From: a virus
DNA length: 64,000 nt
Virus record (IMG/VR): IMGVR_UViG_3300010354_000044
Location: 64,001-128,000 of that record
Strand: one strand, 5' to 3'
Positions 1,181-18,962 of the stretch are shown here, piece after piece. The notes below the pieces were generated by a model. That model saw only the letters and a program-made list of their open reading frames with translations. It made no database searches and had not been told where the DNA came from. How positions within the stretch are numbered: position 1 is the stretch's first letter; each line of letters opens with the position of its first letter. Both the position numbers and the translations under genes were made by a program.

Positions 1181-1419
1181 AGCCGGAGTATAAGCTGCGC
1201 CTATTGGCTGTATACACGCAGTTTCTACTCCGGCTAAGTGGGTGTGTCTGCTGCGCCTATCCCCTGCCCCTGTCGGCTACCTGTAGGACTATTCCTACTT
1301 ATGGCTGACAGGGGCATTTTGCTTTGACCCAGATATGGGGTCGTTAAATATACGTATTCGGTTTGTCCAGCCCGCCCAAAGCTGGATTAGTAAATTATTC
1401 CCAAGGAGGGAACATCATG
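1181..1419 (+). repeat. Intergenic module copy 2 with class I element copy 4 (1325-1386)
   Basis: See 540-752. Confidence 0.85.
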
Positions 1420-4400: not shown

Positions 4401-7400
4401 AGCGCCCAGTGCCTTTAGCTATGGCCTGCCTATCGTCAAGGCTGTGCTTGCAGAGCACCTGGCCGAGGTGCTTTGTCAACTTGGCTATAGCGAGGCTGTA
4501 GCAGGGATGGTAAGCATCCCTGCTGGGTGGAATCTGCCTTGCCCGCAGATGACTGTCGCTAAGCTCAAGAATATGCTTGAGTACATTAGCGACGTGTTCT
4601 CTTCTTTTGGTATCAAGGATTACGAGTATATCTCGTTGAGTCCTGATGCCACGGAGGAGAAGTTCACCGTGTACATCTGCGGCATTGAATTTGCCGTGGA
4701 TGCTCAAGGTGTAACCTTGGTTGACGCGCTGAATCAGAAGGCCATATACGCCACGTATATGGCCCTTCCTATTTGCCATAGAAGCATCCGGGAGGATGAA
4801 GGCGCTTTGATGAGCCCTCACGCGGTCTTCGCCTATATGCTAGCTGAGGTTGTCTTGCCTCTGCTAGTTCGGGTAGACCGTGATAGCTACCGGAATAGGC
4901 TGGTAGGTAGCAATGTCATGCAAACCTACTTCCGAGTAGCTGGGGCGGTAAACACGTATCTTCGTAATTACGTGTCTATTGACCTCCGTTCAGCTACCAT
5001 CGGTGAGCTAGACGACGCAGCAGAAGCCCGCAACCGGGGTGTCGTGGCAGTAGCCTTGAACTACCCCCGCTCCCTATACCGGGATGCTCTGCCTTCAGAG
5101 GTCAAGTCTGGCAATGGATTCTCCATGCTTAACGTAGGCCTTATGAAGGGAAACATCTACGTTGGGGGTGGCAAGGCTATGCCTTCTGAGCTCAGCGTAG
5201 AGGAACGGCAGAACCTAATCCTTGAGCGCGCTGCGCTTAAGACTTTGGGTTACGCTAACACTCAAGTAGTCCACAAGCGGATGCTTGAGCTCGGCTTCTG
5301 CCAAGAGCCGTTCGGGCGGATGACTGTGGTATCGCAGGACATCCATGGCATTAACTTCACAGGTCAGAAAGAAGCTGTGAAGGACTTCTGGGAAAGCCAG
5401 GGCGTCGTAGATGTCATGGAGGTGGCTGCAATCCTAGGCTGCAGAGCAGACTGGACGGAGATCGCGCGAGAAACTTTCGTCGCGTTGTCCAATAAGGGCG
5501 CTAAGCAGCTCAAGCGGACGGCCAACTTCTACCACAATGGCTGTATCTTCATTAGCCAGGCGGTGCAGGCGGCTCAGACCAACGGGGTCTTCAATGAAAT
5601 CAAGGCACTGGCTGTTAAGGCAATTATTGCCAACAGTGCTTTATTCGGTGGCCCTGGTATGGTTTGGGCTAACAAGCAGAAGATTCAGGACATGGGCATC
5701 CGGTACCGCACCGGTGGCCAGGTCTATGAATTCAGCTCCGAGAGTCAGCTGTACTGCGAAGGCTTCGCTTATGAAGCTCAGCATTATAACGAGCACTCCG
5801 GCTGGAACAGCGTGGAGCCTGTAGACCTCCATGTTGTAGAAGGCCGGCCCTTCGGCTTGCTCATCAAGCACGACGGGTACGAGGCAAACATCTCTGCAGA
5901 GCAGAGTGGCCAGGTCACTAAGATCATGTGGCGCTGGGTCACGAAGTTCAATGCCGAGGTGATGGAACTCCGGCTCATCTATGATAAGCGGGAGTATGGC
6001 GCCTTTAAGATCCGTAATGGCTACAAGGGCCTAGTTGCCTTCGTTGAGCCTGAACTGATCGGCAAGGGTGCTGACCTGGTTATCTTCGGGGATGCCAATA
6101 AAACCATGGACATTCTCTACTCCCGCCTACGGGAGGCCGCAGAGAGCTTCGTCCGGGTGCCCCGTGGAACTACCGTTACCCTTAACGGTAAGGACTATGA
6201 TCTCCGCGAGCTGCTGCGTTCATTGAACCAGCAGGCTGGTCCGGCCATGGGTATGGCTATTGAAGACTATGACAGGGATGATCGCCTGTTCATTGACTTC
6301 AAGCTGTTGGCTAAAGGCGCTTACGACATTGTAGGCGAGCTCTTTGAAGCTATCTTTGGCCAGTCCCACTGGTTCCGTTTTGATGGGCCCGACCTGGTCA
6401 AGTTCACGGCCCAGTATTACGGAGCCAAAGCGGAAGCCAACGAAGGCTGGCGTAAGCTGGTTCCTGCTGAGCTTAAGGGTCTAGGCTACCCGAACGCCGT
6501 CGGTTTTACCGATGGTAAAGTAAATGACCCGCATAGCAATGTGCTGGTTGTTGAAGAGGGTGTCGTGCACCACCGTTCCTGGGTCTATGCCGCTAAAGAC
6601 GGTATTGACCTGTATGTTCCGATTAAGCCGGAATATACCACCGTCAGCCAGAACGTGAACTATGCACCTTTGGCTCTCGGCCCTATTGTAGACCCCAGTA
6701 TCCCGACTGAGGTGGCCCGGGAGCTCATCCATGCTGGTGAGGCCAATCGGACCAAGTACACGCTTCTGCATATTTTGCGGAAGCATAGCCTGGGTCCTGT
6801 GGCGTTCACGATGGGTGGCGTTGAAGTGCAGACCGTAACTCTGGCTAGCACGGATACGTTTGCTGGCTTCTTTGGTGAGCATACCCAGATGCTTCAGCAC
6901 AAACGGGCCCTCAGCCGCACTAGTTTTGTACGCGCACTCTGCAACCTATTGCAGACTAAAGTGCTGTGCGTGGAAACTAGTAGATGGACCGAGAGTGGTA
7001 GGGTGATGGCTAACATTTACCTACCTCTGTTGTCCAGCTTTATCATCGGCTCGCTGGATGACCATGCCGATGAGAGCAGCCTCGCGGGTAATGCCTTCAT
7101 GTTCTTTGACATGTGGGCCGCGGGTGAATCGCTCAGTAGCCCAGCCATGGTCAAGATTGCAACTACCATAAGCAATCTGATCAGCAAGCTCTGCGACGGT
7201 AATCGTATGCAGAAGCAGCTGACCTATGGTCCTACCGCTGTAGGTGCGAAGTTGGGTGCATTGCCCATTATCCCCACTGGGGAGCTATGGGTGCTGCGTG
7301 GTGGCGAAGTGCATCGTCGCTTGAAAGTGCGCTTTGGCGATGCCATTAACAATGGCTACGTCATGATGGTGCGTGCGCCTATGACCCGTTCTTGCATCTG

Positions 7401-9942
7401 CAAACTGCGGGTTGTAGACGCTGAGCAGCGTGGGTTTGTACTAAACGGAGTGATGATGTATACATCTCCCTTCGGTCAGTACTTTAATCTAGGTGACTTT
7501 GACGGCGATGGTGTCTTTACCTATGACATCACTAAGTACGTCAACGCTGGGCTCATCAAGCAAGACTCCTACGAGTCTATGCTGGAGTTCCAGAAGTCCC
7601 TGCTCGGGTATGACATGATGTCCCCTGAGTTCTGGGGTTCTGGCGCCCCTGCTCAGTATTATGCAGACCACTATGACATTCCTAGCTACGCTGCTCTGCA
7701 GAAGAAGCTGGGTATGAAGTGTCTGGATAGCGAAGGGCGTTTGATGAACCCTGAGAAGGCCCATGTCTTTAACCGAAAAGCGTTTGAGCTAAGGCAGACC
7801 GGGGCATATGAACAGCAGACCCGGTATGTCTCTTCTTCTTATGGAGTAGAGTACTTTGCTCAGGTCTTTGCTGAGATCTGCCGGGCTATGGGCTTTAAAG
7901 ACTTCATGTGGCTGGCTGACCTAGCGCCGCAGCTGCAGTCCTTGTATGAGGTCGCCCTGGGTGGATACGACAACAACATGTTGTATGTCGCCTTTGGCCT
8001 TATGGACCGAGCCTATAACGGTATGAAGCATACGCCGCACTGGCTGAAGATTGTAGATGAAGATATCTACGATCGCTTCGTTACCGGCAAGACTCATTAC
8101 TACCGGCCTACGGCGTTTCTGAAGGATACTGAGTATACAGCCTTCACCGGGCTGCCCTTTACTGAGGTTCTTCCTTACATGCAGACCCTAGGCTTCTGCT
8201 GGAAGGATGGTAAGCGGGATGATGAGGCTATCCATGGCTTCATCAATGCCGCTATGCTCGCAGGGCTTGCTAAGGTTGCCCGAAAGCTTCCTAAGCCTGA
8301 AGACAGCACTAGCCCGGCTGCGATCGTAGACCAGCTGTTTGAAGATATGGTCGCTGTCTACGGGCGTGACTTTGCTACGGCTGTTCATATGGCGCAGATT
8401 ATCTGCGACACAAGCCGTAATAAAGATAATCAGCGGGGTGGTCAACTGTGCCGGCTTGTTCATGAGCACATGATTGAGCGTTCAGCCGTTGCGCTATTGT
8501 TCAAGCTCATCATGGATGCAAAGCAGCGTATTAACGCGCCCACGCCCGAGCTTAATATTAACGATGTCATTGCTTTGACTCGTTATATTGAGCTTGCTGA
8601 TGTCCTCTCTGAACAGGATGAGGAGTTCCTTGATGTACCTAGTACATCTGGGGAAGCTGCGGCAGAGCCTGAAGATGATAATCAAGGTGATGATGATGAA
8701 GGGGGCATTGCTGTGCCGGAGCCTACTCCGGATAAGCCCGGCCCTGCACCAGGAGCTGCTGAGCCCATTGAGGAGAGCCCTGCTGGTATTGTTCAAGAAG
8801 ATGCAGGATCTTGTATCGTACAAGATCCAGCTACTGTGGAGGTAAAATCCATGTACGTGCAGAACTGGTTCTCAAATATGCTCCCATTAGAAGTCCCAAT
8901 TAAGACTGACTTTGGGACCTTTCAAACGGTAGAGAACTACTACCAGGCTATGAAAACCCTAGACTTGGAGCAAAGGAAAATTATAGCTGAGCTATCTCCC
9001 CACGCTAGTAAGCGTTATGGTCGGCGTAAAATTCAATTACGCTCTGACTGGGAGCAGATCAAGCTAGCTGTTATGGAGGAAGCTCTTCGCAAGAAATTCG
9101 CTCCTGGGACTAAAGCCCTTGAGAGATTACTTGCAGAAAAAGGTGAGATAGTTGAATGGAATAACTGGGGTGATACTTACTGGGGGGCTCTTGCTACTTT
9201 AAGTAATGACGGAACAGTTATTCCTGTTGAGCCTCGTAAAGGCTGTAACCATCTTGGGCGTTTGCTCATGGCCGTTAGAGACGAACATTTAGCGGAGAAT
9301 AAAGTGACCGGAATATTTGACGTGCCCGCGCAGGTGCTGGTTAATCCAGTTAACTGCGGCGGTACCTGGGGCGGAGCTCTTTCCAAAGGGTTCATAGACC
9401 GATACCCAGAAAATACAGCCGCCCTCAAAGTGGCCTCTGAAGCCGGGTCCGTTAAGATAGGGCAGGTGTTAGTGACTGAGGAAGGGGGTAAGTTCATTGT
9501 GAACTTACCTACTAAGCTGGATGCTAACATCCCCAGCCGGCTCGTTGACATAGAAGCTGGTTTATACGCCTTACTAGCCTGGGCTCTGGTTAATAAGCCC
9601 AAATCCATTGCCATACCCGCCCTAGGGTGTGGCCTCGGTGGGCTTAAGTGGGAGGATGTGCTCCCAGTGATTAAACAGGTAGCCACGCTTATGGGTAACC
9701 ATGGTATTGTGGTTTACCTGTTTAACGACCGTGCCGAGCTAGTCACGGTTGACGGAGTTCCTGTCCAGTACGAGGAAGAAATCGTAGAGGAAGAGGTAGT
9801 AGAGCCCCAGCGTCCTACTCTTCCTAAGCTACCTACCCTCAAGCCTCCACAGGCTAACGATGAGGACGAGTATGTGGAGTATGTGGAGCAGGACCCCAAC
9901 ATGCCTGAAGCTGAAGTAGGGGGTCTCTTCAATAATCAATAA
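1417..9942 (+). CDS. Giant polyprotein: SF1B (Dda/RecD-like) helicase + single-chain two-barrel RNA polymerase + NADAR + macrodomain
   Basis: Helicase motifs GYAGTGKTT, VDEASM, GDPAQLPPV, TVHKSQGSTF, YVAISRA; RNAP motifs FKIRNGYKG (~6004-6030), VRAP (~7369-7380), NLGDFDGD (DFDGD 7495-7509); NADAR FSN..TVENYYQAMK..DTYWG..NHLGRLLMAVR; macro VNPVNC..NLPTK..SIAIPALGCGLGGLKW; SD-supported ATG at 1417. Confidence 0.85.
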   Translation: MAILTILTVTATISASAPGAKPKARKRPNRAAQKAQQRRAAFLRRKRQSRNGRRPFHGVRYCNIADRPKARQQKFWARARKLGVAREVAHLLWMGDDLGARRVLKEARRRYQVKRSLVLRTPVDSRGDEALQARPSLKPSTGRVFERGTKGKPPRNWGLTKKSQPEPSWRDFLVKAREVHRDILADLVRVVGGEPTDTVVCMAQTPPPPSPQGRQSTLQRVNGLGLPFELSEDQLTALDKMLAFAESPARGGTFTLEGYAGTGKTTLLPIFLRLLPRNIRAATAVTALSNKAARVLSEKLRGQGLRVEASTIHKLLGIKAIKQNAEIQFDRGGSCTISENLLVIVDEASMLGEVLWNHMTSYFKSIKFLFTGDPAQLPPVNETGAPCFSLADDYAKLTKVLRHGGPVLRESTLVRDLGHGTYHPAQSLSEGNNVFCYQHINWFKVISGLVSDPEKWAKFTDDPNFFRIVAWRNARVAELNTYVRQLLHVGKKLERFMVGDLVILDAPYEDLFTGDEFWVRAVNNGKVDGWNCLEITLEPVHDAKAETIVRVLAAEEASRYKQESDRLRELATQHVIPWAEYWALQELFAGLSYGYAMTVHKSQGSTFRNVLVDYSDIKLCRGLELNKLIYVAISRASKNVIMNVGTSPIYERVKPAGEIDTGPPEIPEPPVVNAQEPVVEEAPPTLPEEESVAEVGASVSIAVAPQEPAVEETQAAPINTGQPVTETTTKEETMWFVEIDVAELTFFATKTNHAGTFPVNGLEVFKKGLLGKGYKLVETQVGPEGEELKLVYAKQPPTALGGERAPADPPDQPFASGNVAQFKQTVLNFIAQRLGKLHQQYPESGMRELIVRMTEAINYSPRDAFFAAPLSDMLSMWVFEATHSKELGNRPIPVIEKEAYYLSGKCLTGRPSLIGDLDLLLSRQRLDIEGDSYRLRYPIEQVEAAILDAEGRDLYEGYRVILSEGIKSHAVLNGNFPHLGVEVEDMAAALTVHQLAPSAFSYGLPIVKAVLAEHLAEVLCQLGYSEAVAGMVSIPAGWNLPCPQMTVAKLKNMLEYISDVFSSFGIKDYEYISLSPDATEEKFTVYICGIEFAVDAQGVTLVDALNQKAIYATYMALPICHRSIREDEGALMSPHAVFAYMLAEVVLPLLVRVDRDSYRNRLVGSNVMQTYFRVAGAVNTYLRNYVSIDLRSATIGELDDAAEARNRGVVAVALNYPRSLYRDALPSEVKSGNGFSMLNVGLMKGNIYVGGGKAMPSELSVEERQNLILERAALKTLGYANTQVVHKRMLELGFCQEPFGRMTVVSQDIHGINFTGQKEAVKDFWESQGVVDVMEVAAILGCRADWTEIARETFVALSNKGAKQLKRTANFYHNGCIFISQAVQAAQTNGVFNEIKALAVKAIIANSALFGGPGMVWANKQKIQDMGIRYRTGGQVYEFSSESQLYCEGFAYEAQHYNEHSGWNSVEPVDLHVVEGRPFGLLIKHDGYEANISAEQSGQVTKIMWRWVTKFNAEVMELRLIYDKREYGAFKIRNGYKGLVAFVEPELIGKGADLVIFGDANKTMDILYSRLREAAESFVRVPRGTTVTLNGKDYDLRELLRSLNQQAGPAMGMAIEDYDRDDRLFIDFKLLAKGAYDIVGELFEAIFGQSHWFRFDGPDLVKFTAQYYGAKAEANEGWRKLVPAELKGLGYPNAVGFTDGKVNDPHSNVLVVEEGVVHHRSWVYAAKDGIDLYVPIKPEYTTVSQNVNYAPLALGPIVDPSIPTEVARELIHAGEANRTKYTLLHILRKHSLGPVAFTMGGVEVQTVTLASTDTFAGFFGEHTQMLQHKRALSRTSFVRALCNLLQTKVLCVETSRWTESGRVMANIYLPLLSSFIIGSLDDHADESSLAGNAFMFFDMWAAGESLSSPAMVKIATTISNLISKLCDGNRMQKQLTYGPTAVGAKLGALPIIPTGELWVLRGGEVHRRLKVRFGDAINNGYVMMVRAPMTRSCICKLRVVDAEQRGFVLNGVMMYTSPFGQYFNLGDFDGDGVFTYDITKYVNAGLIKQDSYESMLEFQKSLLGYDMMSPEFWGSGAPAQYYADHYDIPSYAALQKKLGMKCLDSEGRLMNPEKAHVFNRKAFELRQTGAYEQQTRYVSSSYGVEYFAQVFAEICRAMGFKDFMWLADLAPQLQSLYEVALGGYDNNMLYVAFGLMDRAYNGMKHTPHWLKIVDEDIYDRFVTGKTHYYRPTAFLKDTEYTAFTGLPFTEVLPYMQTLGFCWKDGKRDDEAIHGFINAAMLAGLAKVARKLPKPEDSTSPAAIVDQLFEDMVAVYGRDFATAVHMAQIICDTSRNKDNQRGGQLCRLVHEHMIERSAVALLFKLIMDAKQRINAPTPELNINDVIALTRYIELADVLSEQDEEFLDVPSTSGEAAAEPEDDNQGDDDEGGIAVPEPTPDKPGPAPGAAEPIEESPAGIVQEDAGSCIVQDPATVEVKSMYVQNWFSNMLPLEVPIKTDFGTFQTVENYYQAMKTLDLEQRKIIAELSPHASKRYGRRKIQLRSDWEQIKLAVMEEALRKKFAPGTKALERLLAEKGEIVEWNNWGDTYWGALATLSNDGTVIPVEPRKGCNHLGRLLMAVRDEHLAENKVTGIFDVPAQVLVNPVNCGGTWGGALSKGFIDRYPENTAALKVASEAGSVKIGQVLVTEEGGKFIVNLPTKLDANIPSRLVDIEAGLYALLAWALVNKPKSIAIPALGCGLGGLKWEDVLPVIKQVATLMGNHGIVVYLFNDRAELVTVDGVPVQYEEEIVEEEVVEPQRPTLPKLPTLKPPQANDEDEYVEYVEQDPNMPEAEVGGLFNNQ

Positions 9943-9987
9943 TAACTTAGCGCCCTGATCTACCTTTAGACCTAGGGCGCTAAGTTA
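9942..9987 (+). terminator. Hairpin after polyprotein gene
   Basis: TAACTTAGCGCCCT...AGGGCGCTAAGTTA inverted repeat. Confidence 0.6.
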
Positions 9988-10097
9988 TTAAGCTAACAAA
10001 TCCCCCTGGGTGTGTTTATTGCTGCGCTCTACCCTGTATAGGGTCCAGGTGCGGTTCCGGTCTTTGGTTTGTCGGTGGTGTCCGTAGGGTGTCGGGC

Positions 10098-10226
10098 TGG
10101 CCTGCTTCGGTTCGGGTTGGCGGCAGTCTGCAGAGCCTGTCGGTCTGTGCCCGCATTGTTGGGGCTGTCCACTTCCACCGCGTTGTTGGATTGGCCTGCT
10201 TCGGTTCGGGTTGGCGGCAGTCTGCA
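10098..10226 (+). repeat. 35-bp direct repeat TGGCCTGCTTCGGTTCGGGTTGGCGGCAGTCTGCA (2 copies)
   Basis: Copies start near 10098 and 10192. Confidence 0.85.
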
Positions 10227-10254
10227 TCGTTGTTGGAATACTAGGAGAAAGAAA

Positions 10255-10872
10255 ATGGAACTGAAAGTAACCCCTAAGATCCTTGAGAACGGACGCGTAT
10301 GGAATACCTTCTGGGGTAGTGCCACCTCAGAGAATGGCGTCAGGGTATTGCAGGAGGACCTAGGTAACAGCATATACGCAATTGACATAAGTTGCGTATC
10401 TGTGATTTGGTATAAGAATGGGGACCTCTCCGTAGAGATATCGTCTCCGCTCCTTACCCCAGTGGGAGAGGTAAAATACTTAACCGTGGGTAAATCCACG
10501 GTTGAGAGGTCGCGTTTTATTCAATTATTCGGGCGTGAGGTCTACGAGACTTTGCTCACCCTAGAAGTGAGTAAGCGCCATTCCCTGGAGGGGCGTGGCC
10601 GAATTGCCTGGAAATGGGCGCCCCGTAAAGAGGAGGGAGAATTGTATTTCTCTGAACTTGATACTGACTGTCCGAACATCAGGATCAGGTTGTTCGCCGG
10701 TGTGGGTGGCCTGCTGCCAAATAGCGCAGTTCGTGCTTGGGAGCCCGCGCCTGCTGCTCCCAAGGCTCCTGCGCCCCTGGCTCCCCTACCCACTCTGGTC
10801 CCGCTTACACCCCAGCCCCCCAAGCTGGGGGTGCCCGAGGCCCCCGCACCCGCCGCCCTAGATAACGTCTAG
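10255..10872 (+). CDS. Hypothetical protein with Pro/Ala-rich C-terminus; start moved to ATG 10255
   Basis: AGGAG SD upstream; upstream part of the ORF is repeat DNA. Confidence 0.7.
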   Translation: MELKVTPKILENGRVWNTFWGSATSENGVRVLQEDLGNSIYAIDISCVSVIWYKNGDLSVEISSPLLTPVGEVKYLTVGKSTVERSRFIQLFGREVYETLLTLEVSKRHSLEGRGRIAWKWAPRKEEGELYFSELDTDCPNIRIRLFAGVGGLLPNSAVRAWEPAPAAPKAPAPLAPLPTLVPLTPQPPKLGVPEAPAPAALDNV

Positions 10873-11281
10873 GCCCCCCATTCTGCCGTCCTCCCAAGGG
10901 CGGCAGTTTGGTTTGGATGTTACGTAACGGCGAAGTCTTGACCTCCTTCCCCTTACCGACACATCCCACCTCGGCCCTACCCGGTGGGCTAGAAAACTAC
11001 CGGGCGGTGTCGGCTAAGGCGACGTTAAAGACACGCGCGGGGGGAGGACCTAAGCTCCAAAACCCCGCCATGAGGTGTACCAGGACTGTACACCAAATAA
11101 GCCCAGTCCCCTCTAGGGGTTCAAAAAGCCTGGGTCAATGTGCAAAGGGGGCTTGGCCAGCCCCCGGATGGGCTCGCTTTGCCCTCATGCCCAGGGCGCC
11201 CTGGGCAAAAACCAAACCGCCGTTGTGTTAGCTATGATAAGCTAATATAGCGGCGGTTTGGTTTAGGAAAGGTGTAAAAGA

Positions 11282-11668
11282 ATGTTCGTATCACAAATTG
11301 AAGAAGTCTTGTACCGCCCCTATACAACGGGGATGATACGGGAGGAGCTGCCGCAGTCCACAATAAAAGCGGTGGTCGTCTCCCTAGCGGGGACAGACTA
11401 CACGCAACTCCCGGAGGAGGGAGATCTAGATACAGGAAATCTAGGCCTATGCCTGGAATTCCCTGCTTTTGGCTGCCCTCAATGGGTAGTGGCAAAAGTG
11501 GCAAAGAGGACCTCCCACTACCCGTGGGTAGGGGTCTTTGACCACGGTAAAAGGGAGTTCGTGGTAATACACACGATTGCCGATTACTGGGTACCTCAGT
11601 ACCCGGTAATGGGGGAACTCCTTAGCCGCACTCCAGAGGGGGTGGAGCTAGTGCTTCCCCCGGTGTAG
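11282..11668 (+). CDS. Hypothetical protein
   Basis: ORF behind class II hairpin and purine-rich SD. Confidence 0.75.
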   Translation: MFVSQIEEVLYRPYTTGMIREELPQSTIKAVVVSLAGTDYTQLPEEGDLDTGNLGLCLEFPAFGCPQWVVAKVAKRTSHYPWVGVFDHGKREFVVIHTIADYWVPQYPVMGELLSRTPEGVELVLPPV

Positions 11669-11744
11669 GCTAATCCTACAAACCGCCGTGTATTAGCTTA
11701 TTATAGTTAATACACGGCGGTTTGATTTTGACGGAGTAGAGACT

Positions 11745-12131
11745 ATGGAAATTATGATCAAGTACCCCGCAGGGGGTACCGCTATTGTTTGCGAGCTCCC
11801 CCCTGCAGGGAGTCTCCCTACCGCGTTTGCGTTAGAAGATGTCTCTAGACCTAGACAAGTAATCCGCATTGAGCGGAGAGAGGAGGGCGACCTCCTGGTT
11901 GAACGGGGAATCGTAGGTAGACACTGGCACGTATATAAGGTAGCTACTATTAAGGTAGCTGGTATTTGGGGGGAAGTCCGCGGGGACTTCTGCTCCATTA
12001 AGGAAGGGGATGGGACAATAATTGAATACAGAAAAGGCCCAGGGGATTATTGTATCTCCTGCGGGACTTTTCAAGGCCCTCGCGGGGAGTACCGCGAGGG
12101 CCATAACTGCTACATGTGCGGGATGAATTAG
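11745..12131 (+). CDS. Hypothetical protein with C-terminal CxxC..CxxC zinc ribbon
   Basis: CISC...CYMC; behind class II hairpin. Confidence 0.75.
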   Translation: MEIMIKYPAGGTAIVCELPPAGSLPTAFALEDVSRPRQVIRIERREEGDLLVERGIVGRHWHVYKVATIKVAGIWGEVRGDFCSIKEGDGTIIEYRKGPGDYCISCGTFQGPRGEYREGHNCYMCGMN

Positions 12132-12371
12132 CATGTATATGTCTCCGTTAAAACAGCTAGGCTTGTGGGTATCAGGAGTGGCGATTGGCTTTGCGATCGC
12201 CACTGGTATCCAATTGGTAGAGTGCCCGCCACCGCTACCATCTACAGAGCAACAGCCTTGAAACCAAACCGCCGTTACTAAGCTACTATAAGCAAAGTAA
12301 CGGCGGTTTGATTTATTCCACGGATTCACTACAATAATTACCCCCGACCGTGGCGGGGGAGGAGGAAAATT

Positions 12372-13298
12372 ATGAGCCTGTTGTTTGTATTAAACCCCGC
12401 GCCCAAGGCGCAGGAGGAAATGATCAAATTGATTAAGGCCCAGCCCGGGCCTTACATCGGGTTGGAAATGACGGTCCCAGAGCTAGCAGCTCTGATGGAC
12501 GTCAATATAGACCCTCAACATACAGGCTTTGACGCAGCGACGAGCTGCGTCAAAGCCTGCCTAGAAGGGTCCTTCCTGGTGAAGGGAGGGGCCTACTTCA
12601 CCGTCCGCGCTGACCTGGACGCATTCGCGTCCTACCTGATCCTCGCGGGTCTAGTAGATATTAATAATGAAGATGTCTTCGTCAGACTCATGATGATTCA
12701 TGTAGCGGATACGTTCGCCCATGGCCCTTGGTCACTTGGAGCTAGCGGTACTGGCTATGAAAAGCCTTCGTTGGCGGGTATTAACCGCTGCGTGGCGGAC
12801 TACAAGCTGCCGGTAGAGGAACGGCTCGCTGCTCTCCAGCATTGGCTGGAAACCGGGGAGCATCCAGAGAAACACCTGGCTGAGGTAGAAGCCGAGGCCG
12901 AGGAAATCGCCACCGCCTTAGAAAGCGGGCAGACTGTAGTAACCATTTTAAGTGGTTACACCATAGTACAGTCTGAGTTGCGCGGAGCACCCAGCATTGG
13001 CTACCGGAGTAATCCGGTGGTTCTTGCGTGGAACCCGGCCTTCCCCATTTACGGGGAAATTGATGGAAATCAGGTTGTCGTTGGGCAAGGGCTTAAGTAC
13101 TCCGTCTGCCAGTGGGCAGAGGGGTACATTGACCTGAATGGTTTCCTTGCGGAAATCCGTAAGGAAGAGCCCGGGTGGGGAGGAAGCCCCACGTTCGTAA
13201 GCTCGCCCCAGAACGTGGCTAGTGAGGTCCCACTACAGCGTGTGCAAGAACTGTTTTACCAGTTCTTGCACCCTACTGCACAACTTGCTAGTTGCTAA
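12372..13298 (+). CDS. Putative DHH-like phosphoesterase
   Basis: IDPQH, RADLDAFAS and C-terminal GWGGS motifs; strong SD GGAGGAGG. Confidence 0.45.
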   Translation: MSLLFVLNPAPKAQEEMIKLIKAQPGPYIGLEMTVPELAALMDVNIDPQHTGFDAATSCVKACLEGSFLVKGGAYFTVRADLDAFASYLILAGLVDINNEDVFVRLMMIHVADTFAHGPWSLGASGTGYEKPSLAGINRCVADYKLPVEERLAALQHWLETGEHPEKHLAEVEAEAEEIATALESGQTVVTILSGYTIVQSELRGAPSIGYRSNPVVLAWNPAFPIYGEIDGNQVVVGQGLKYSVCQWAEGYIDLNGFLAEIRKEEPGWGGSPTFVSSPQNVASEVPLQRVQELFYQFLHPTAQLASC

Positions 13299-13386
13299 TG
13301 TTTCGTAAATCAAACCGCCGTTACTAAGCTATTATGCAAGGTAACGGCGGTTTGATTTACATAGCTATAGCTAAGGGAGAAACTAA

Positions 13387-13773
13387 ATGGATTGGGTCAG
13401 AACGATCCAGGAGCAGGTAGCTCCTGTTATGCTGAGTGAGTTTGAGGACCGAAAAAGACGCCTAACGGTTTTCCTGGAATTATGGAAACGTCAAGAGCCC
13501 CAAGCATATGCTAAATGGGCCCAAGAGGAGGAAGAGGCCACACTTGCCGACTGGCAGTGGGCTAACGGCACGGGAAATGGGACGTTTGGCCCTCTGTCGG
13601 TCTATCATATAGATCCGACAGAATATATAAAGATAGGTGTCCCCACTAAACAAGCCTACGCGGGCTTGTTCAACAAGGATACCCGAACATGGACCGGCGT
13701 GTACCTAAATAAAATACAAACCCTATGCTTGAGTAGTAAACTACCCAAGCATTGCGAGATAAGGGTCATATAG
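13387..13773 (+). CDS. Hypothetical protein
   Basis: Behind class II hairpin, SD. Confidence 0.75.
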   Translation: MDWVRTIQEQVAPVMLSEFEDRKRRLTVFLELWKRQEPQAYAKWAQEEEEATLADWQWANGTGNGTFGPLSVYHIDPTEYIKIGVPTKQAYAGLFNKDTRTWTGVYLNKIQTLCLSSKLPKHCEIRVI

Positions 13774-13840
13774 GTTGCTGCCGTGGTGTTGACTCCCTAG
13801 GTCAACACCACGGCGGTTAGATTTGCAGTAGGAAATAACC

Positions 13841-14029
13841 ATGCTTACAGAACACCAAAAAAATCACGCAGCGAAGACCCTCAGGCTATTTGAAGTTCTT
13901 CCTCCATACAGCGAGGAAGAGCTTACTAAGATCGTAAATGCGCATGCGCAAATCAGCGCATCGCTGAAGGATATAATAGTAAAGCGGGATGGAAGCGGCC
14001 ACGTTGATTGGGGAGATTTATTCTTCTAG
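13841..14029 (+). CDS. Hypothetical protein, 62 aa
   Basis: Behind class II hairpin. Confidence 0.7.
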   Translation: MLTEHQKNHAAKTLRLFEVLPPYSEEELTKIVNAHAQISASLKDIIVKRDGSGHVDWGDLFF

Positions 14030-14206
14030 GCCGCCGAAACTGCCGCAAGAGGCCGGGTAAACGGGTGTCTACTGATGGAGGAAACGTGCAATGAAATAAA
14101 AGCCGCACGTTCTAGCCTCCGGTAGGTGTACGAACTGCCGGTAATAAAGCCTATTACAGCTTATTACCGGCAGTTTGATATAGTTACCCCAGGAGGGGAG
14201 GAATAT

Positions 14207-14542
14207 ATGAACGTAGTATTTAAGGAGTTCATGGTTGCGCTAGTAGAGAATAATATCAGTTTCTCCTTTCATCAGACGCAGCGTGGAGCATCAAAGGGGA
14301 TTACCATACACTTCGGTACCGCTGAGGGGAGCTATTTCTTCACTCCAACGGAAAAAGAAATCGCGCTATACGCCCCGAACAGGACGTTCACCGGGGGTTA
14401 CATTTACTCCTTTGAGGATGTAGCCCAACTGGCGTTCAAGTATTGGACATCCTCTGAGGACAGTTATGTCCTAGAGGAGTGGGAGGATATTTTCCGGGAA
14501 CGGGGATGGGTTGAAGAGGTTACCGTCCTCAAGCCTAAATAA
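14207..14542 (+). CDS. Hypothetical protein; start moved to ATG 14207
   Basis: GGAGG SD; hairpin 14133-14180 lies in the leader. Confidence 0.7.
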   Translation: MNVVFKEFMVALVENNISFSFHQTQRGASKGITIHFGTAEGSYFFTPTEKEIALYAPNRTFTGGYIYSFEDVAQLAFKYWTSSEDSYVLEEWEDIFRERGWVEEVTVLKPK

Positions 14543-14610
14543 AAACTACCGGGGTATTGATCCTAAAAATCAATACCCCGGCTGTTTGATTTACTCATAG
14601 GGGAGGCGAA

Positions 14611-15321
14611 ATGTACTTAGTAGGGGGGTCCGTTAGGGACCTTTTGTTAGAGCTCACTGTTGACGACTACGACTTTGTATTCGTAGCCTACAGCTGGGAG
14701 CATTTGGTAGAACTAGCCCAAGGGGAGTTTGGGCCAGTTCCTAAGGCCGGGACGGAATCTGGATTTGTTGAATTTCCAGACACCTTCACCTTAAAGGGGA
14801 TGAAGGTGATTGATAGGAAGCGGCAGATCTGTGACATTGCCGCTGCCCGGCGGGAATACCACAGTGGCCCCGGGCATAAGCCCTCGGCTATTTCTTTGGC
14901 GCCTACGCTAGAGGAAGACCTAAAGCGCCGGGACTTCACAGTTAACGCGATGGCACGTGACTGGAAGACCGGTGAGTTAATTGACCTATATGGCGGGCAG
15001 GCCGACCTGTCCGCCAGGGTGCTTCGCTGTGTCGGCGATACGGAAAAACGCCTATTAGAGAACCCAGACCGGGTAATCCGGGCGTTTTATTTCCAGTGTA
15101 AACTAGTAGGCTTCACATTCTGTGAAGAGCTGGAAGCAGTTCTTCGTGAGTCTGTGGTGGTTCAAAAAGCAGTCGCCGACGACTGCCCTGACCGAAAAGC
15201 TCAGCAGCTGACTAAGCTCCTTAAAAGGGCTTCAACGGCTGAGCTGATGGGAACGATCTCCGAATACCCCCAAACATGGGCGGCGATCACAAAGGGGCTT
15301 AAGCTAAAGTTCACAACTTAA
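14611..15321 (+). CDS. tRNA nucleotidyltransferase (CCA-adding/poly(A) polymerase class II), short form
   Basis: VGGSVRD, DYDF, RRDFTVNAMA, ENPDRVIRA motifs. Confidence 0.85.
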   Translation: MYLVGGSVRDLLLELTVDDYDFVFVAYSWEHLVELAQGEFGPVPKAGTESGFVEFPDTFTLKGMKVIDRKRQICDIAAARREYHSGPGHKPSAISLAPTLEEDLKRRDFTVNAMARDWKTGELIDLYGGQADLSARVLRCVGDTEKRLLENPDRVIRAFYFQCKLVGFTFCEELEAVLRESVVVQKAVADDCPDRKAQQLTKLLKRASTAELMGTISEYPQTWAAITKGLKLKFTT

Positions 15322-15387
15322 GCACACCAGGCTGCCGCTATTACCCCCAATAGCGGCGGTTTGATTTGTAAATCTAAGGAGGGCTTT

Positions 15388-15756
15388 ATGACCAAGATAC
15401 ATCGGGACAGTCGGGGGGTGCTTTACCGCCTTCCCGACCTGGAAGACGCGCACCTAGAGAATATAATCAGGCGCCTAGAGCGGGCAGCCTGTCTAGGGGT
15501 ACGTGTTAAGGTAAAGTATGGGTACACAACCGTCTATGGCGTTGAGGCTGAGCAGTATTTAGAACTCTCAAAGTACCGCGAAGAGCAGGAAAGACGGGCT
15601 AAGATAGCAAGCTTGCGTAAAAGCGTGAGCGAACTTAAGGCTGTTTTAGCAGAGAGGCCTATTCCTAATATACAGGACATCATAAGAGCCCAAGAGGAGT
15701 GGTTTACACAATACCACTTCTACTGTAACGAACCCAAGCGTGGTGCTTACCGCTAA
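15388..15756 (+). CDS. Hypothetical protein; N-terminus resembles that of 60876..61520
   Basis: SD AAGGAGG before ATG 15388; LPDLEDAHLENII vs LSNLTDNHVKNVI. Confidence 0.7.
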   Translation: MTKIHRDSRGVLYRLPDLEDAHLENIIRRLERAACLGVRVKVKYGYTTVYGVEAEQYLELSKYREEQERRAKIASLRKSVSELKAVLAERPIPNIQDIIRAQEEWFTQYHFYCNEPKRGAYR

Positions 15757-15832
15757 GGGTAACTAAAAATGACAAGGCCGCCTGTGTATCCTATACACCG
15801 GCGGTTTGATTTGTAAGCTTTAAGGAGGGTTC

Positions 15833-16108
15833 ATGGCTAAAGTATTTACGAAGGTAGTGGGGCATTGTAGCGAATGCCCTAATTACCGAAAGGCCCCCTG
15901 GGGCGGGCAGTGTCTGTCACTTGAGGTAGATATCTATCTTAAGGCAGACACAGAAATCCTAGCTGATTGCCCACTAGAAGGAGACGGGGTACAGGTACAG
16001 GTACAGGAACCCGAGACTAAAGTGCGCTCAAGGGTTGACTGGAGTAAGGTACCTAAAGTAATTGAGCCGGAAGAGTTAGACTTCCGGCAAGCCTGCGAGG
16101 ATGCGTAG
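15833..16108 (+). CDS. Small Cys-rich protein
   Basis: CSECP..C..CPL; SD AAGGAGG. Confidence 0.7.
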   Translation: MAKVFTKVVGHCSECPNYRKAPWGGQCLSLEVDIYLKADTEILADCPLEGDGVQVQVQEPETKVRSRVDWSKVPKVIEPEELDFRQACEDA

Positions 16109-17184
16109 TGATAGGCTTCATCCTGGCCCTACTAGGGAGTAGAATCCCGAACGGGCCTTTAATAGCGTTGTTCATATGCCCCTCGGCATATGACGCTATC
16201 ACCTGCTTCTTTGCAGGCCTTTACCTGAACACTCCCCGGGAGCTGATGCGCCCGGAGGAGTCCGGCAATCTGGAGCAGATGCTTGCCACAGGCGGGCGGA
16301 GGCTCCGGTTTGACGATAGGACGCTTGGCATCGCCATTGAAGTAATGGTGCATGTCAAGCTGATGATGTTCATTTTCGGTCTAGCCTTCGGAGTTTTCTT
16401 CGGCTACGTAGGCGCAGACCGGATCTATGGAATGGCGCCCTTCACCGGGGCGCTCGTTATTCTTTGGGTCATCCTGAAGAGTGACGATACGGTAAAAACC
16501 ATTATTAGCCTGGCGTTTTCAGGCGTAATGGTTTTCGCCTTAATTAAGTTGGGGTTACCTAACGCCCTGCCGGTGCTATTGCTGACTCTAAGCACGTCGC
16601 CGGCAAAAGAAGAGGAGAGCGTTGAGGTGGATGGCCTTACCGAGGTCCTCCGCTGCAAAGAGCATGCCCCGATGGATTGGCTGCTCGGCGGGATGGTTGG
16701 GCTCGTCCCTGGCCTGAACGCCAGCAACTGGGTCTGTAATTTCGGGAATTCCGATAACCGGGATAACCGATTAACGGCCCTTGCCATAGGCATATTCGCC
16801 GAGGGTATTGCCCTTGGCGTCATCATGGCCTCCCGATTTACCGGGAAGACTGCGCTTAGCCAAATGCTAAGTGATTGGCAGTTCATTCCCGGCACCACCG
16901 CGCTGCTACTCGGGCTAATCGCCTGGATGGCAGCTGCGATGCTATATCGCCGGTGGCCGCGGCTGGCGATGGCCCAGGTCCCTGGGTTAGGCCTTATTGG
17001 ACAGGTAGGGCCTCTGGCCCTGGCGGTAGTTTACGCTACTGCCAACCAATGGGCGCTCCTATTTCCAGGCAGCGGCCTAGCTGCTGCGCTGGTTATAGTA
17101 GGAGGGCTGAAGATGTTGTCAGTCTCAGTACCTGACAACATCAAACCCGTCATCGCCACCCTACCCGTCTTGGGAGGTGGGTGA
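16108..17184 (+). CDS. Polytopic membrane protein (weak TctA-like GLVPG motif)
   Basis: Many hydrophobic segments; translationally coupled to neighbours. Confidence 0.65.
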   Translation: MIGFILALLGSRIPNGPLIALFICPSAYDAITCFFAGLYLNTPRELMRPEESGNLEQMLATGGRRLRFDDRTLGIAIEVMVHVKLMMFIFGLAFGVFFGYVGADRIYGMAPFTGALVILWVILKSDDTVKTIISLAFSGVMVFALIKLGLPNALPVLLLTLSTSPAKEEESVEVDGLTEVLRCKEHAPMDWLLGGMVGLVPGLNASNWVCNFGNSDNRDNRLTALAIGIFAEGIALGVIMASRFTGKTALSQMLSDWQFIPGTTALLLGLIAWMAAAMLYRRWPRLAMAQVPGLGLIGQVGPLALAVVYATANQWALLFPGSGLAAALVIVGGLKMLSVSVPDNIKPVIATLPVLGGG

Positions 17185-17561
17185 TGAAATTAAACTTAGC
17201 TCTAGCGCTGGGGGTGCTTGTTTTTGTTGGCCGTTGCGCCGACAATCGCACCCCGATGGAGTGGGAGGTGCATAACCTAGTCGAGTGCGACCAGGATGGG
17301 TGCTTCACAGAAGGCGGCGGTCGTGTTTCTGGCCACCACCTTCAAGAAGGCCTGCAGGAGGTGCTGATACAGAAGGGGAATAACCCAACCATCCTACGCA
17401 GCTCCCCTGTCCTAGGGAAGGAACCCCTAGGTAAAGTTACCGACATAGCCCCGGCGGGGGCGGAGTACGTAGTGACTGCTAACGGTGAGCAATACATCGT
17501 GGCAGACTGCGAAAAGGGTGCACAGCTATTCAAGAAGGGGTTAACCCTCTCCTGCGAATAG
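17181..17561 (+). CDS. Putative lipoprotein/secreted protein
   Basis: Hydrophobic N-terminus ending VGRC. Confidence 0.55.
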   Translation: MMKLNLALALGVLVFVGRCADNRTPMEWEVHNLVECDQDGCFTEGGGRVSGHHLQEGLQEVLIQKGNNPTILRSSPVLGKEPLGKVTDIAPAGAEYVVTANGEQYIVADCEKGAQLFKKGLTLSCE

Positions 17562-17794
17562 TTTGTACCCGTACAAAGGGCCCCCTCCCCTACTCCCCCT
17601 AAAAGCGGCGGGTTGGGAGAGGGTACGCTCCGCCCCCACCCCTCTCCCTCCTCCTCCTAAGCCCCCCAAGGGCGGCAGGATGGTCATGATGTTTCTTTAA
17701 ACAAATCGCTGTGTCCCCCAAGGATGCGGCGGTTTGCTTTAGGGGTTTAAACCCCTAAAGCATTATCCACTTAACCAAAACGAGTCAAATCAAA

Positions 17795-18916: not shown

Positions 18917-18962
18917 GGAGCCGGTTACCGTACCCAGGTATAGTAACCGGCTCCTTTTTTTC
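18917..18962 (+). terminator. Intrinsic terminator closing the early block
   Basis: GGAGCCGGTTAC...GTAACCGGCTCC followed by a T run. Confidence 0.85.

Follow-up and report, generated by a model that had tools for sequence, protein, structure and literature searches.

The window (the whole stretch of DNA analysed, 64,000 nt of a 171,984-bp virus record) encodes a giant helicase/two-barrel RNA polymerase/NADAR/Macro protein, in whose alignment the NLGDFDGDG motif is invariant, and downstream of it lies a same-strand block of small accessory genes, g1 to g12, punctuated by eleven sense-strand hairpins that span positions 10883-17740 (Table 1). The hairpin array is found downstream of the giant gene in every lineage found. 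All eleven hairpins are intergenic and, as a preliminary description had observed, most genes follow one: a hairpin stands ahead of 10 of the 14 genes from g1 to g12, the exceptions g2b, g10 and g11 overlapping or abutting the preceding gene. A Shine-Dalgarno site and a start codon usually lie 12-28 nt downstream of the hairpin tail. The stretch after hairpin 1, about 290 nt, is non-coding and holds no gene; this module has stops in all three frames, non-triplet indels in the related strain L244 and a minimum free energy (MFE) of -124.8 kcal/mol, and its 3' 170 nt are well conserved in L244, with few mismatches. Together with a degenerate copy of its 3' half, hairpin 1 forms a direct repeat flanking the array. 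The proteins encoded in the array are mutually unrelated, which argues that the hairpin was not spread by gene duplication.

Table 1. Features of the array and its surroundings (window coordinates; z, folding z-score)
Feature	Position	Strand	Remarks
Giant helicase / two-barrel RNA polymerase / NADAR / Macro gene	1363..9942	+	
Hairpin 1	10883..10914	+	10-bp stem CTGCCGTCCT/AGGGCGGCAG, tail TTTGGTTT; z -4.3; begins 10 nt past g0 stop codon; L244 copy identical
Gene-less module, hairpins 1-2	10915..11208	+	conserved non-coding; candidate structured RNA
Hairpin 2	11209..11264	+	25-bp near-perfect palindrome, loop with TATGAT, tail TTTGGTTT; z -11.3
Strain-variable block	11265..13810	+	g1, hairpin 3, g2, g2b, hairpin 4, g3, hairpin 5, g4, 5' part of hairpin 6
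Hairpin 3	11680..11728	+	19-bp stem, loop TATTAT; z -9.4
Hairpin 4	12263..12314	+	stem adjoins g2b stop codon; TACTAT in loop region; z -7.7
Hairpin 5	13305..13358	+	21-bp stem; TATTAT in loop region; z -9.7
Hairpin 6	13777..13824	+	18-bp stem, three G-U pairs, tail TTAGATTT; z -7.8
Hairpin 7	14131..14181	+	base CTGCCG/CGGCAG, tail TTTGATAT; z -9.6; L244 copy identical
Hairpin 8	14543..14592	+	2x2 internal loop at stem base; z -7.4; first base directly follows g6 stop codon; L244 copy identical
Hairpin 9	15328..15367	+	z -5.6
Replaced module	15368..15790	+	g8 leader, g8 coding sequence, 5' arm and loop of hairpin 10
Hairpin 10	15776..15812	+	z -4.2
Degenerate copy of hairpin 1 3' half	17662..17699	+	30/38 nt identical, tail lost
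Hairpin 11	17697..17740	+	15-bp stem, four G-U pairs, tail TTTGCTTT; z -5.0
Ordinary strong terminator after g12	18917..18962	+	14-bp GC-rich stem then T7; closes block

With up to two mismatches, GGCGGTTTGATTT matches the + strand 11 times, always within window 10902-17740, and three of these 11 copies are palindromic and match the - strand as well; elsewhere in the record there are only four two-mismatch matches, all unrelated. With up to three mismatches the window holds 19 matches against 5.0 expected, a number reached by 0 of 100 shuffles. Every one of the 11 copies forms the 3' arm of a 10-25 bp hairpin with a loop of 4-16 nt, and all eleven hairpins share the stem base 5'-CYGCCG...CGGCRG-3' and the tail TTTRVTTT, so that a GC clamp, extended inwards by 4-19 more base pairs of free sequence, is followed by UUU-R-V-UUU. 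The array noticed in the preliminary description is therefore real, its 11 copies being confined to one 7-kb block of the 172-kb record, with MFEs of -17.6 to -40.5 kcal/mol and z-scores of -4.2 to -11.3 (0 of 200 shuffles fold equally well). Among the distinct copies, UUU follows the closing pair immediately in 21 of 21, tail positions 4-5 are never T, purines always occupy the tail centre and the 5' flank is A-rich in about half; all 25 hairpin copies lie on the coding strand. Isolated look-alikes in other viral contigs occur one at a time, as is usual for ordinary terminators, and one weak covariance-model match at an unrelated locus is a textbook terminator.

The inner stems vary yet stay paired, as had been proposed: RNAalifold finds 13 consensus pairs in the 11 copies, six of them with compensatory changes, and 0 of 500 shuffles reach the covariation score of the alignment, in which 95.6% of cells are paired versus 80% in shuffles and 28-53% in slid controls. 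The covariance model that the preliminary description had suggested, built from the 11 copies and run over the whole record, recovers these 11 alone. G-U pairs number 18 on the + strand versus 8 on the - strand, and the + strand fold is the more stable in 9 of the 11 copies (summed MFE -300.7 vs -258.5 kcal/mol). Inner-stem covariation and the G-U pairs favouring the coding strand thus indicate that the hairpins most likely fold at the RNA level, on the sense strand. The conserved 3' arm emphasized earlier is indeed seen, but mostly as G-U tolerance would lead one to expect: with a C-rich 5' arm facing a G-rich 3' arm, C-to-U changes in the former keep the pairing, and six of the eight deviations in the 5' arm are of this kind. 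Similarly, the -10-like loops (TATGAT, TATTAT, TACTAT, TATTAT) are real but restricted to hairpins 2-5, a closely related, recent-looking subfamily, and so are not a feature of the whole family. The link drawn through CGGTTTG to 'class I leaders' finds no support, as this 7-mer occurs 34 times in the record and the covariance model shows no link.

Comparison with L244, whose giant protein is 86-92% identical, places differences between strains at the hairpins. L244 is without window 11265-13810 (2.5 kb, five genes): the blastn match breaks off at window 11264 and picks up again at 13811, and the two segments overlap by 14 nt, corresponding to the 3' arm plus tail common to hairpins 2 and 6. 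The left junction is hairpin 2, the right one the hairpin 6 3' arm (13811-13824), and a hybrid of the two hairpins is visible in L244. A third strain, from a different sample, has the short gene order, consistent with absence of the same segment. An assembly artefact is an unlikely source of this indel, since a 14-nt repeat falls short of the usual assembly k-mers. In addition, g8 is replaced in L244 from the hairpin 9 tail to the hairpin 10 loop: identity is 64% across 15368..15790 versus 89-100% in the flanks, and the g8 protein resembles its counterpart only over residues 4-64 (53%). Hairpin 10 has its 3' arm, tail and leader in common with L244, while its 5' arm and loop differ yet pair. 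Orthologous hairpins show C-G to U-G to U-A changes; in the L244 hairpin 9 a basal U-G pair has become U-A and a new U-G pair is present, and in hairpin 11 three of the wobble pairs are Watson-Crick. The earlier suggestion of recombination points that shuffle cassettes, together with the gene-order comparison put forward to check it, has direct comparative backing in this five-gene indel and one-gene replacement, both with junctions in the conserved 3' arm and tail.

A distant lineage, L245, has a giant protein 33% identical to that of the window and no array gene in common with it, and it carries seven hairpins with the same clamp and tail downstream of its own giant gene. All seven are on the + strand and six are more stable there (-154.3 vs -125.7 kcal/mol); the consensus differs slightly between the lineages (TTTGATTT vs TTTAGTTT). 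Five of the seven copies lie 12-17 nt before a start codon and 79-316 nt past the nearest called stop, a spacing more in line with a gene-start than with a gene-end signal, but some of these stop-to-hairpin gaps may contain small ORFs that were not called.

The best explanation, which we hold with about even confidence, is that the hairpins are terminator-shaped intercistronic RNA stem-loops that double as recombination linkers. Judging from its shape, each hairpin would end or attenuate transcription arriving from upstream and would shield the 3' end of the upstream RNA, and the two effects together would insulate neighbouring modules from one another; genes farther downstream would depend on read-through, perhaps by a polymerase insensitive to the hairpins. 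A module runs from one tail to the next 3' arm and consists of a leader, an ORF and, from the hairpin that follows, its variable 5' arm and loop. As comparison between strains shows, the clamp and tail, the sole sequence common to otherwise unrelated genes, are where recombination has deleted, inserted or replaced modules. No dedicated recombinase was found in the 172-kb record, and exchange thus has the look of homologous recombination in which short conserved linkers serve as crossover points, not of a site-specific system. The preliminary interpretation as a whole is partly supported, and the elements do have the shape of the simple terminators that it had counted as contrary to its proposals.

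Like intrinsic (Rho-independent) terminators, the hairpins have a stem with a GC-rich base and UUU adjoining it, often an A-rich 5' flank, and a location just past stop codons; unlike them, they occur as eleven serial copies in a same-strand gene block with no promoters between, with one fixed clamp sequence and two central tail positions that are never U. The absence of T from tail positions 4-5, and a clamp kept at 33% protein identity, point to sequence-specific recognition of the clamp and tail, probably more than a plain terminator needs. Speaking against linkers of terminator shape, eleven terminators in series without promoters would starve distal genes unless the polymerase reads through, and the other, ordinary terminators of this genome have diverse stems and plain, uninterrupted T runs. 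The closest resemblance in gene organization is to the PeSL (promoter-early stem-loop) cassettes of the T4-type phages RB49/phi1, T4/PST and KVP40/nt-1 (PMC2839356, PMC4122927). There too, a conserved intergenic element that includes a stable terminator-type stem-loop fills the interval between a stop codon and the Shine-Dalgarno site and ATG of the following gene, within a cluster of small genes of unknown function, and close strains differ by gene deletion, insertion and replacement with crossovers within the element. In contrast, the array hairpins are without a sigma-70-like -35/-10 pair or an AT-rich upstream region, their conserved part is a stem clamp plus interrupted U-tract (~20 nt) instead of ~100 bp, their stems are longer (10-25 bp), and this phage is unrelated to T4, the array always following the giant helicase/two-barrel RNA polymerase fusion. 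The array hairpins resemble PeSL cassettes in their logic, minus a recognisable sigma-70 promoter half.

An alternative that we regard as unlikely is that the hairpins are processing or stabilizer sites. One transcript, from the giant gene to the 18.9-kb terminator, would be cut in the U-rich tails by RNase E/J or a phage enzyme, leaving an upstream piece with a protective 3' hairpin and a downstream piece with a short leader, as with RNase III in the T7 early operon. Folding on the sense strand, one element per gene junction without promoters between, the standard terminator closing the block and a ribosome-binding site directly downstream of the tail all agree with this, and the constant non-T at tail positions 4-5 suggests a specific site. 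The RNase III sites R0.3 to R1.3 of the T7/T3 early operon have stems of about 20 bp with an internal loop, and the cut hairpin remains on the upstream RNA as a stabilizer. They too are hairpins between consecutive genes of an operon that includes a phage RNA polymerase gene; however, they have no U-rich tail, and more than half of the array stems are too short. With a sufficient length in just 4-5 of the 11 stems, the RNase III-type sites proposed earlier cannot cover the whole family; another nuclease may do the cutting. Having U at +1 to +3 after a purine, the tail agrees with the '+2 uridine' rule for cyanobacterial RNase E, which may not be the host's, but it has no A at -3/-4, also part of that signature (PMC8682795). 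Moreover, in roughly half of the copies an A-rich 5' flank pairs with the tail and would conceal a single-strand cleavage site.

It is rather improbable that the hairpins are start or loading signals for the giant polymerase. Here the hairpin and its T-rich non-template tail would load the 5'-to-3' helicase module, transcription would start at the tail purines, and every module would have its own phage-specific promoter. The family occurs only in contigs encoding the giant protein and always downstream of it, in two lineages 33% identical, and the shift in consensus between them resembles polymerase/promoter pairs; the fixed 12-17 nt to the start codon in L245 and the central tail purines also agree, and the hairpins still fold as DNA (-4.5 to -10.5 kcal/mol). 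Enzymes related to this polymerase class use single-stranded DNA as a template and act together with helicases (bioRxiv 10.1101/2020.03.07.982082), which is in keeping with such a signal, but early transcripts of the crAss-like enzyme have no common upstream motif (bioRxiv 10.1101/2020.03.07.982082), which is not. Furthermore, the plentiful G-U pairs speak for RNA rather than DNA, the weakest hairpins would be only marginally stable as DNA and the association rests on two independent lineages. The covariance-model search of the record places no motif copy ahead of any other gene, of which there are more than 100, and the enzyme would accordingly be dedicated to about 12 genes. N4 virion RNA polymerase promoters are template-strand hairpins with stems of 5-7 bp and loops of 3 nt, used by a T7-like enzyme. 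The array resembles them in its association with a giant RNA polymerase encoded by the phage and with a short run of small genes, but its stems of 10-25 bp, loops of 4-16 nt and better fold on the non-template strand led us to reject an N4-type promoter. No enrichment of sigma-70-like promoters or promoter-like sites was found between the hairpins either; of the hairpin promoters proposed earlier, only a novel start signal keeps some plausibility.

We consider it very unlikely that the hairpins are functionless, a selfish or hitch-hiking MITE-like palindrome spread through intergenic gaps and merely tolerated. Confinement to one block, several palindromic copies and the recent-looking subfamily would suit this, but the clamp and tail are kept in a lineage at 33% protein identity and without common array genes, not one of 25 copies departs from the coding-strand orientation, their position between a stop codon and a ribosome-binding site does not vary, and compensatory and wobble changes maintain pairing. 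Dedicated recombination sites, whether attC-like folded ssDNA or HUH/Y1 targets actively mobilizing single-gene cassettes, are hardly credible: promoterless same-orientation modules bounded by imperfect palindromes with a variable centre, conserved outer arms and a 3'-arm junction do recall integron attC, whose core words are RYYYAAC and GTTRRRY (ATCAAAC and GTTTGAT are each one mismatch away), but these approximate words are limited to copies with an A-rich flank, a search of the 172 kb for tyrosine recombinases, serine recombinases and Y1 transposases was negative (about 13% of the genome is missing; control genomes matched), and the five-gene indel is as expected from simple repeat-mediated deletion. 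An integron-like mechanism was rejected, there being no integrase, no extrahelical bases in the stems and a better fold on the coding strand, not the bottom strand. Finally, a tract nearly identical to L244, window 14086-14753, ends away from the hairpins, indicating that recombination is not confined to them.

The motif GGCGGTTTGATTT, searched with up to two mismatches, has 11 matches on the + strand, all within window positions 10902-17740, and the genes around the array all lie on that strand too. Three additional matches on the − strand are mirror images of palindromic copies, and the four two-mismatch matches in the remainder of the record (171,984 bp, linear, rated 87% complete, with the window at bases 64001-128000) are unrelated. 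Each motif copy forms the descending arm of a hairpin whose stem has 10-25 bp, with minimum free energies of -17.6 to -40.5 kcal/mol and z-scores of -4.2 to -11.3, and none of 200 shuffles folded equally well. A covariance model trained on these copies recovered the same 11 alone from the whole record. Thus, the array of 11 hairpins noticed in the preliminary description stands, far from chance. Its claim that the inner stems vary yet stay paired was equally confirmed: RNAalifold gave 13 consensus pairs for the window copies, six of them with compensatory changes, 95.6% of the cells were paired (80% after column shuffles and 28-53% with the partners slid), and the covariation score was matched by none of 500 shuffles. 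Rfam matches to the long stems were miRNA-like and were judged to be chance.

The anatomy of the element was drawn from 21 distinct copies on three contigs. It consists of a six-pair clamp, 5'-CYGCCG...CGGCRG-3', whose second pair covaries (C-G 10, U-A 7, U-G 2, A-U 1); an inner stem and loop whose sequence differs in each copy while pairing is kept; and a tail, TTT-R-V-TTT, that begins right after the closing pair. The clamp directly adjoins UUU in all 21 copies, the tail holds 5-6 U among its eight positions, and T never occurs at its two central positions (4-5). In about half of the copies, an A-rich 5' flank is also able to pair with the tail. The 3' arm is indeed the better conserved, with one deviation against eight in the 5' arm, and since six of these eight are C-to-U changes, tolerance of G-U pairs explains most of the difference; we therefore do not take it as a sign of a promoter. 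Similarly, the -10-like hexamers reported in four loops are real, but they are confined to one sequence subfamily (hairpins 2-5), and on reading the sequence none has a -35 partner. A further idea, that -10-like words just 5' of CGGCGG are promoter elements, was rejected, as neither the GC-rich copies nor the distant lineage described below has these words, which were taken as a by-product of AT-rich inner stems. Sigma-70-like promoters showed no excess (seven found, 9.4 expected) and none at the hairpins as a class.

The elements occupy a regular place between genes. Eight hairpins begin 0-19 nt past the preceding stop codon, eight end 16-28 nt before the next ATG, and a Shine-Dalgarno site lies 0-14 nt past the tail. 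Overlapping or abutting gene junctions (g2/g2b, g9/g10 and g10/g11) carry no hairpin. The block is closed by an ordinary strong terminator, and the genome's other ordinary terminators are varied in their stems, with plain T runs; the genome-wide scan behind this statement was useful only after strict filtering, its first form being too permissive (278 predictions on the + strand, 281 on the −). The array proteins, compared with each other, are mutually unrelated, so an origin of the array by gene duplication was rejected, and nearly all array genes are without family matches.

Features of the array and its surroundings (window coordinates unless stated)
Feature	Position	Remarks
Giant gene	1363-9942	+ strand; Pfam matches to helicase, NADAR and Macro domains only
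Inverted repeat	9940-9990	from the giant gene's stop codon; perfect, 17 bp, 17-nt loop
Direct repeat	10090-10132 and 10184-10226	43 nt, 93% identical; at the start of the g0 frame
Hairpins 1-11	10883-17740	+ strand
Hairpin 1 to hairpin 2	10915-11208	3' 170 nt well conserved; fold of -124.8 kcal/mol
g3	12372-13298	308 residues; no Pfam or PHROG match
g5	13841-14029	62 codons
g7	14611-15321	236 residues; nucleotidyltransferase
Degenerate copy of hairpin 1 3' half	17662-17699	30/38 nt as in 10890-10921; T-rich tail gone
Closing terminator	18917-18954	ordinary, strong; followed by a T run (T7)
Tract near-identical in close strain	14086-14753	ends not at hairpins
Repeated leader	246, 692, 1359	genome 64246, 64692, 65359; further copy at genome 61433
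DprA-like gene, distant lineage	9248-10228 of contig L245	DNA_processg_A

Several observations point to the strand and the molecule on which the elements act. The 11 window copies contain 18 G-U pairs when folded from the coding strand and eight from the opposite strand; the coding-strand fold is the more stable in nine of them, with summed energies of -300.7 versus -258.5 kcal/mol. In the distant lineage, all seven copies are coding-strand elements, and for six of them that strand gives the better fold (-154.3 versus -125.7). Moreover, orthologous hairpins of the window and of a close strain differ by C-G to U-G and U-G to U-A steps. This G-U bias, strand stability and succession of wobble steps bear the signature of selection on sense-strand RNA. 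A role as DNA on the non-template strand is less likely; it stays conceivable because the hairpins would fold as single-stranded DNA too (-4.5 to -10.5 kcal/mol for the weakest).

Relatives were found through the polymerase part of the 2,859-residue protein encoded upstream of the array. In an alignment of three proteins, this giant one and two homologues, the motif NLGDFDGDG is invariant; motifs of the DFDGD type form the metal site of two-barrel RNA polymerases and have been noted for the crAss-like virion enzyme (bioRxiv 10.1101/2020.03.07.982082). The protein is taken to be an SF1B-type helicase fused to a two-barrel (DFDGD) RNA polymerase, the polymerase part being checked through the motif and the homologues only. 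In a close strain (contig L244), the identity of the protein, P0122, is 92% in the homologue search and 86% in a tblastn alignment of 2,792 residues. A third strain (P0128), represented by a 78.8-kb contig that comes from a different sample, is known by gene order alone, and a distant homologue (P0123, contigs L245 and L246) is 33% identical. The phage lineage is freshwater, probably cyanobacterial, and unrelated to T4. Searches of GenBank phages by blastn and tblastn gave no relative of the array region, the helicase domain alone matching, and two metagenome scans and two protein-based viral scans gave no usable relatives. Exact-motif scans of the viral collection returned single scattered matches and no arrays, and in 39 motif-containing loci the covariance model gave no more than one weak match each, again without arrays. 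The model had no match in Microcystis phage Ma-LMM01 (162 kb), whose early region also lacks homologues of the array genes, and no family members were seen at the loci of 80 phage CCA-enzyme genes or in three contexts of g3 homologues.

The comparison of gene order across strains bears out the proposal that the hairpins are recombination points that shuffle cassettes. The close-strain contig is collinear with window positions 1250-11264 and resumes at 13811, with a 14-nt overlap at the junction that is the arm plus tail common to hairpins 2 and 6; in the hybrid hairpin of that contig, hairpin 2 supplies the 5' arm and the loop, and hairpin 6 the leader downstream. The two strains therefore differ by the presence or absence of five genes (g1, g2, g2b, g3 and g4) and of three complete hairpins. 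The third strain has the same short gene order, and an assembly collapse at the junction is unlikely because the repeat is only 14 nt long and imperfect. Separately, g8 is replaced in the close strain: identity, 89-100% in the flanks, falls to 64% between the point where the hairpin 9 tail ends and the hairpin 10 loop; the two g8 proteins are similar in their first 60 residues only (53%). Both events have their junctions in the arm and tail, and together they define one swappable unit: a leader, an ORF, then the variable part (5' arm and loop) of the hairpin that follows, with the invariant arm and tail as its borders. An argument from steps in identity falling at hairpins was dropped, since one sharp, near-identical tract contradicts it. 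Ordinary homologous exchange takes place anywhere in shared sequence, and the hairpins count where the flanking genes are non-homologous. No tyrosine recombinase, serine recombinase or Y1 transposase was detected in the 87%-complete record, so the simplest mechanism is homologous or short-repeat recombination without a dedicated enzyme.

The distant lineage shares none of the array genes with the window. Its contig L245 carries seven hairpins, all downstream of its own giant gene. They share the clamp, and their tail is TTTAGTTT except for one copy that has TTTGATTT and one that has TTTACTTT. Five of the seven end 12-17 nt before a start codon, yet lie 79-316 nt from the nearest called stop, and some of these gaps may hold uncalled small ORFs. 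As clamp and tail are kept and the array genes are not, the element is older than the arrays' gene content. So far, it has been found only beside this polymerase gene, in two independent lineages. On the same contig, the hairpins are preceded by a DprA-like gene whose sequence overlaps the giant gene's end.

The closest known counterpart is PeSL, the promoter-early stem-loop cassette of T4-type phages, whose stem-loop has been shown to terminate and whose copies recombine with one another, so that small genes are deleted, inserted or replaced (PMC2839356, PMC4122927). Excised mini-circles are a further trait by which PeSL cassettes are recognised. As in PeSL, a conserved element spans the distance between a stop codon and the start codon that follows it, the small genes of the block are variable, and close strains show indels and replacements with the crossover inside the element. 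The stem-loop here is shaped like a terminator, and a terminating or attenuating activity is predicted from that shape. Unlike in PeSL, a strong sigma-70-like early promoter (-35, -10 and AT-rich upstream region) is absent. The element also resembles intrinsic terminators in its GC-rich stem, immediately followed by a U-rich tract, and often in its A-rich 5' flank. Such terminators lie where a transcription unit ends, with RNA 3' ends in the U-tract; eleven in series without promoters between them are atypical. Because of this terminator shape and the PeSL-like organisation and strain differences, we favour, with about even confidence, terminator-type RNA stem-loops that would insulate or attenuate, the same elements doubling as recombination linkers.

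Four features keep two other readings alive: the eleven elements in series without promoters, the tail centre that is never T, a clamp sequence fixed across deep divergence, and the anchoring to the downstream start codon in the distant lineage. In the first, which we consider unlikely, the elements would be sites of endonucleolytic processing with the hairpin as a 3' stabiliser; the tail matches the RNase E signature of cyanobacteria (PMC8682795) in its U-rich half only. It is also tempting to speculate, though we find this more improbable still, that hairpin and T-rich tail are the cis signal of an undescribed transcription machine, where the giant helicase-polymerase would load on the non-template strand at the hairpin foot and start at the central tail purines, giving every module its own phage-specific start. 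Such a signal would explain the restriction of the family to sites downstream of the giant gene in two lineages whose proteins are 33% identical, the fixed sequence of clamp and tail, and the 12-17 nt spacing to start codons.

Other mechanisms fared worse. T7-type RNase III sites, suggested in the preliminary description, comprise about two helical turns of double-stranded RNA, a length reached by only 4-5 of the 11 window stems; hairpins 1, 9, 10 and 11 have 10-15 pairs, and most stems of the distant lineage are too short. The hairpin promoters of the preliminary description, if of the N4 type, are contradicted by stem, loop and strand, as those have 5-7 bp stems, 3-nt loops and use the template strand, whereas the array has stems of 10-25 bp and loops of 4-16 nt and favours the non-template strand. 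An integron-like mechanism was rejected: attC sites fold from the bottom strand and have extrahelical bases, while here the coding strand folds better and no base is bulged; the attC core words (RYYYAAC/GTTRRRY) are approached to one mismatch only in copies with an A-rich flank; and an IntI-type recombinase (PF00589) had no match in the 172 kb of the 87%-complete record, with 14 of 14 control genomes matched. Hairpin ends of the IS200/IS605 type found no support, the same record giving no match to the Y1 (HUH) transposase (PF01797).

The favoured terminator and linker reading would extend the PeSL principle, in which regulatory stem-loops are linkers for accessory-gene swaps, to a lineage unrelated to T4, in which the element has no ordinary promoter and the swappable unit is precisely defined as reaching from each tail to the 3' arm that follows. 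In addition, the strict association with the giant helicase-RNA-polymerase gene offers a candidate signal for the biochemistry of that enzyme, which could be a terminator to read through, an insulator against the polymerase of the host or a start site of its own. Searches of metagenomes for the variable accessory genes of this phage group, likely host-interaction or counter-defence genes, can also use the conserved junction as a practical marker.

Some modules and neighbouring sequences deserve mention. The only array gene with a family assignment, g7, encodes a short protein with the head domain of poly(A) polymerases and CCA-adding enzymes. The g3 protein, encoded on the strain-variable block, has 127 homologues (up to 40% identity) from bacteria and metagenomes, whose gene neighbourhoods are unrelated, and belongs to a widespread uncharacterised family. 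In two other strains g5 has 93 and 99 codons and reaches hairpin 7, so that the window version appears shortened by an earlier stop codon. The segment from hairpin 1 to hairpin 2 is non-coding in the close strain, with stops in all frames and non-triplet indels, and is a candidate structured RNA filling a module slot. Just before hairpin 11 lies the degenerate copy of part of hairpin 1; thus, a direct repeat flanks the array. The inverted repeat at the end of the giant gene differs in type from the array family, and the 43-nt direct repeat ends in GGCGGCAGTCTGCA; the start codon assigned to g0 is tentative. Finally, a separate repeated leader, composed of a small hairpin, TTAAATAT, 6-7 nt, CGGTTTG and a second hairpin, has one copy directly 5' of the giant gene and may represent a promoter-plus-leader class.
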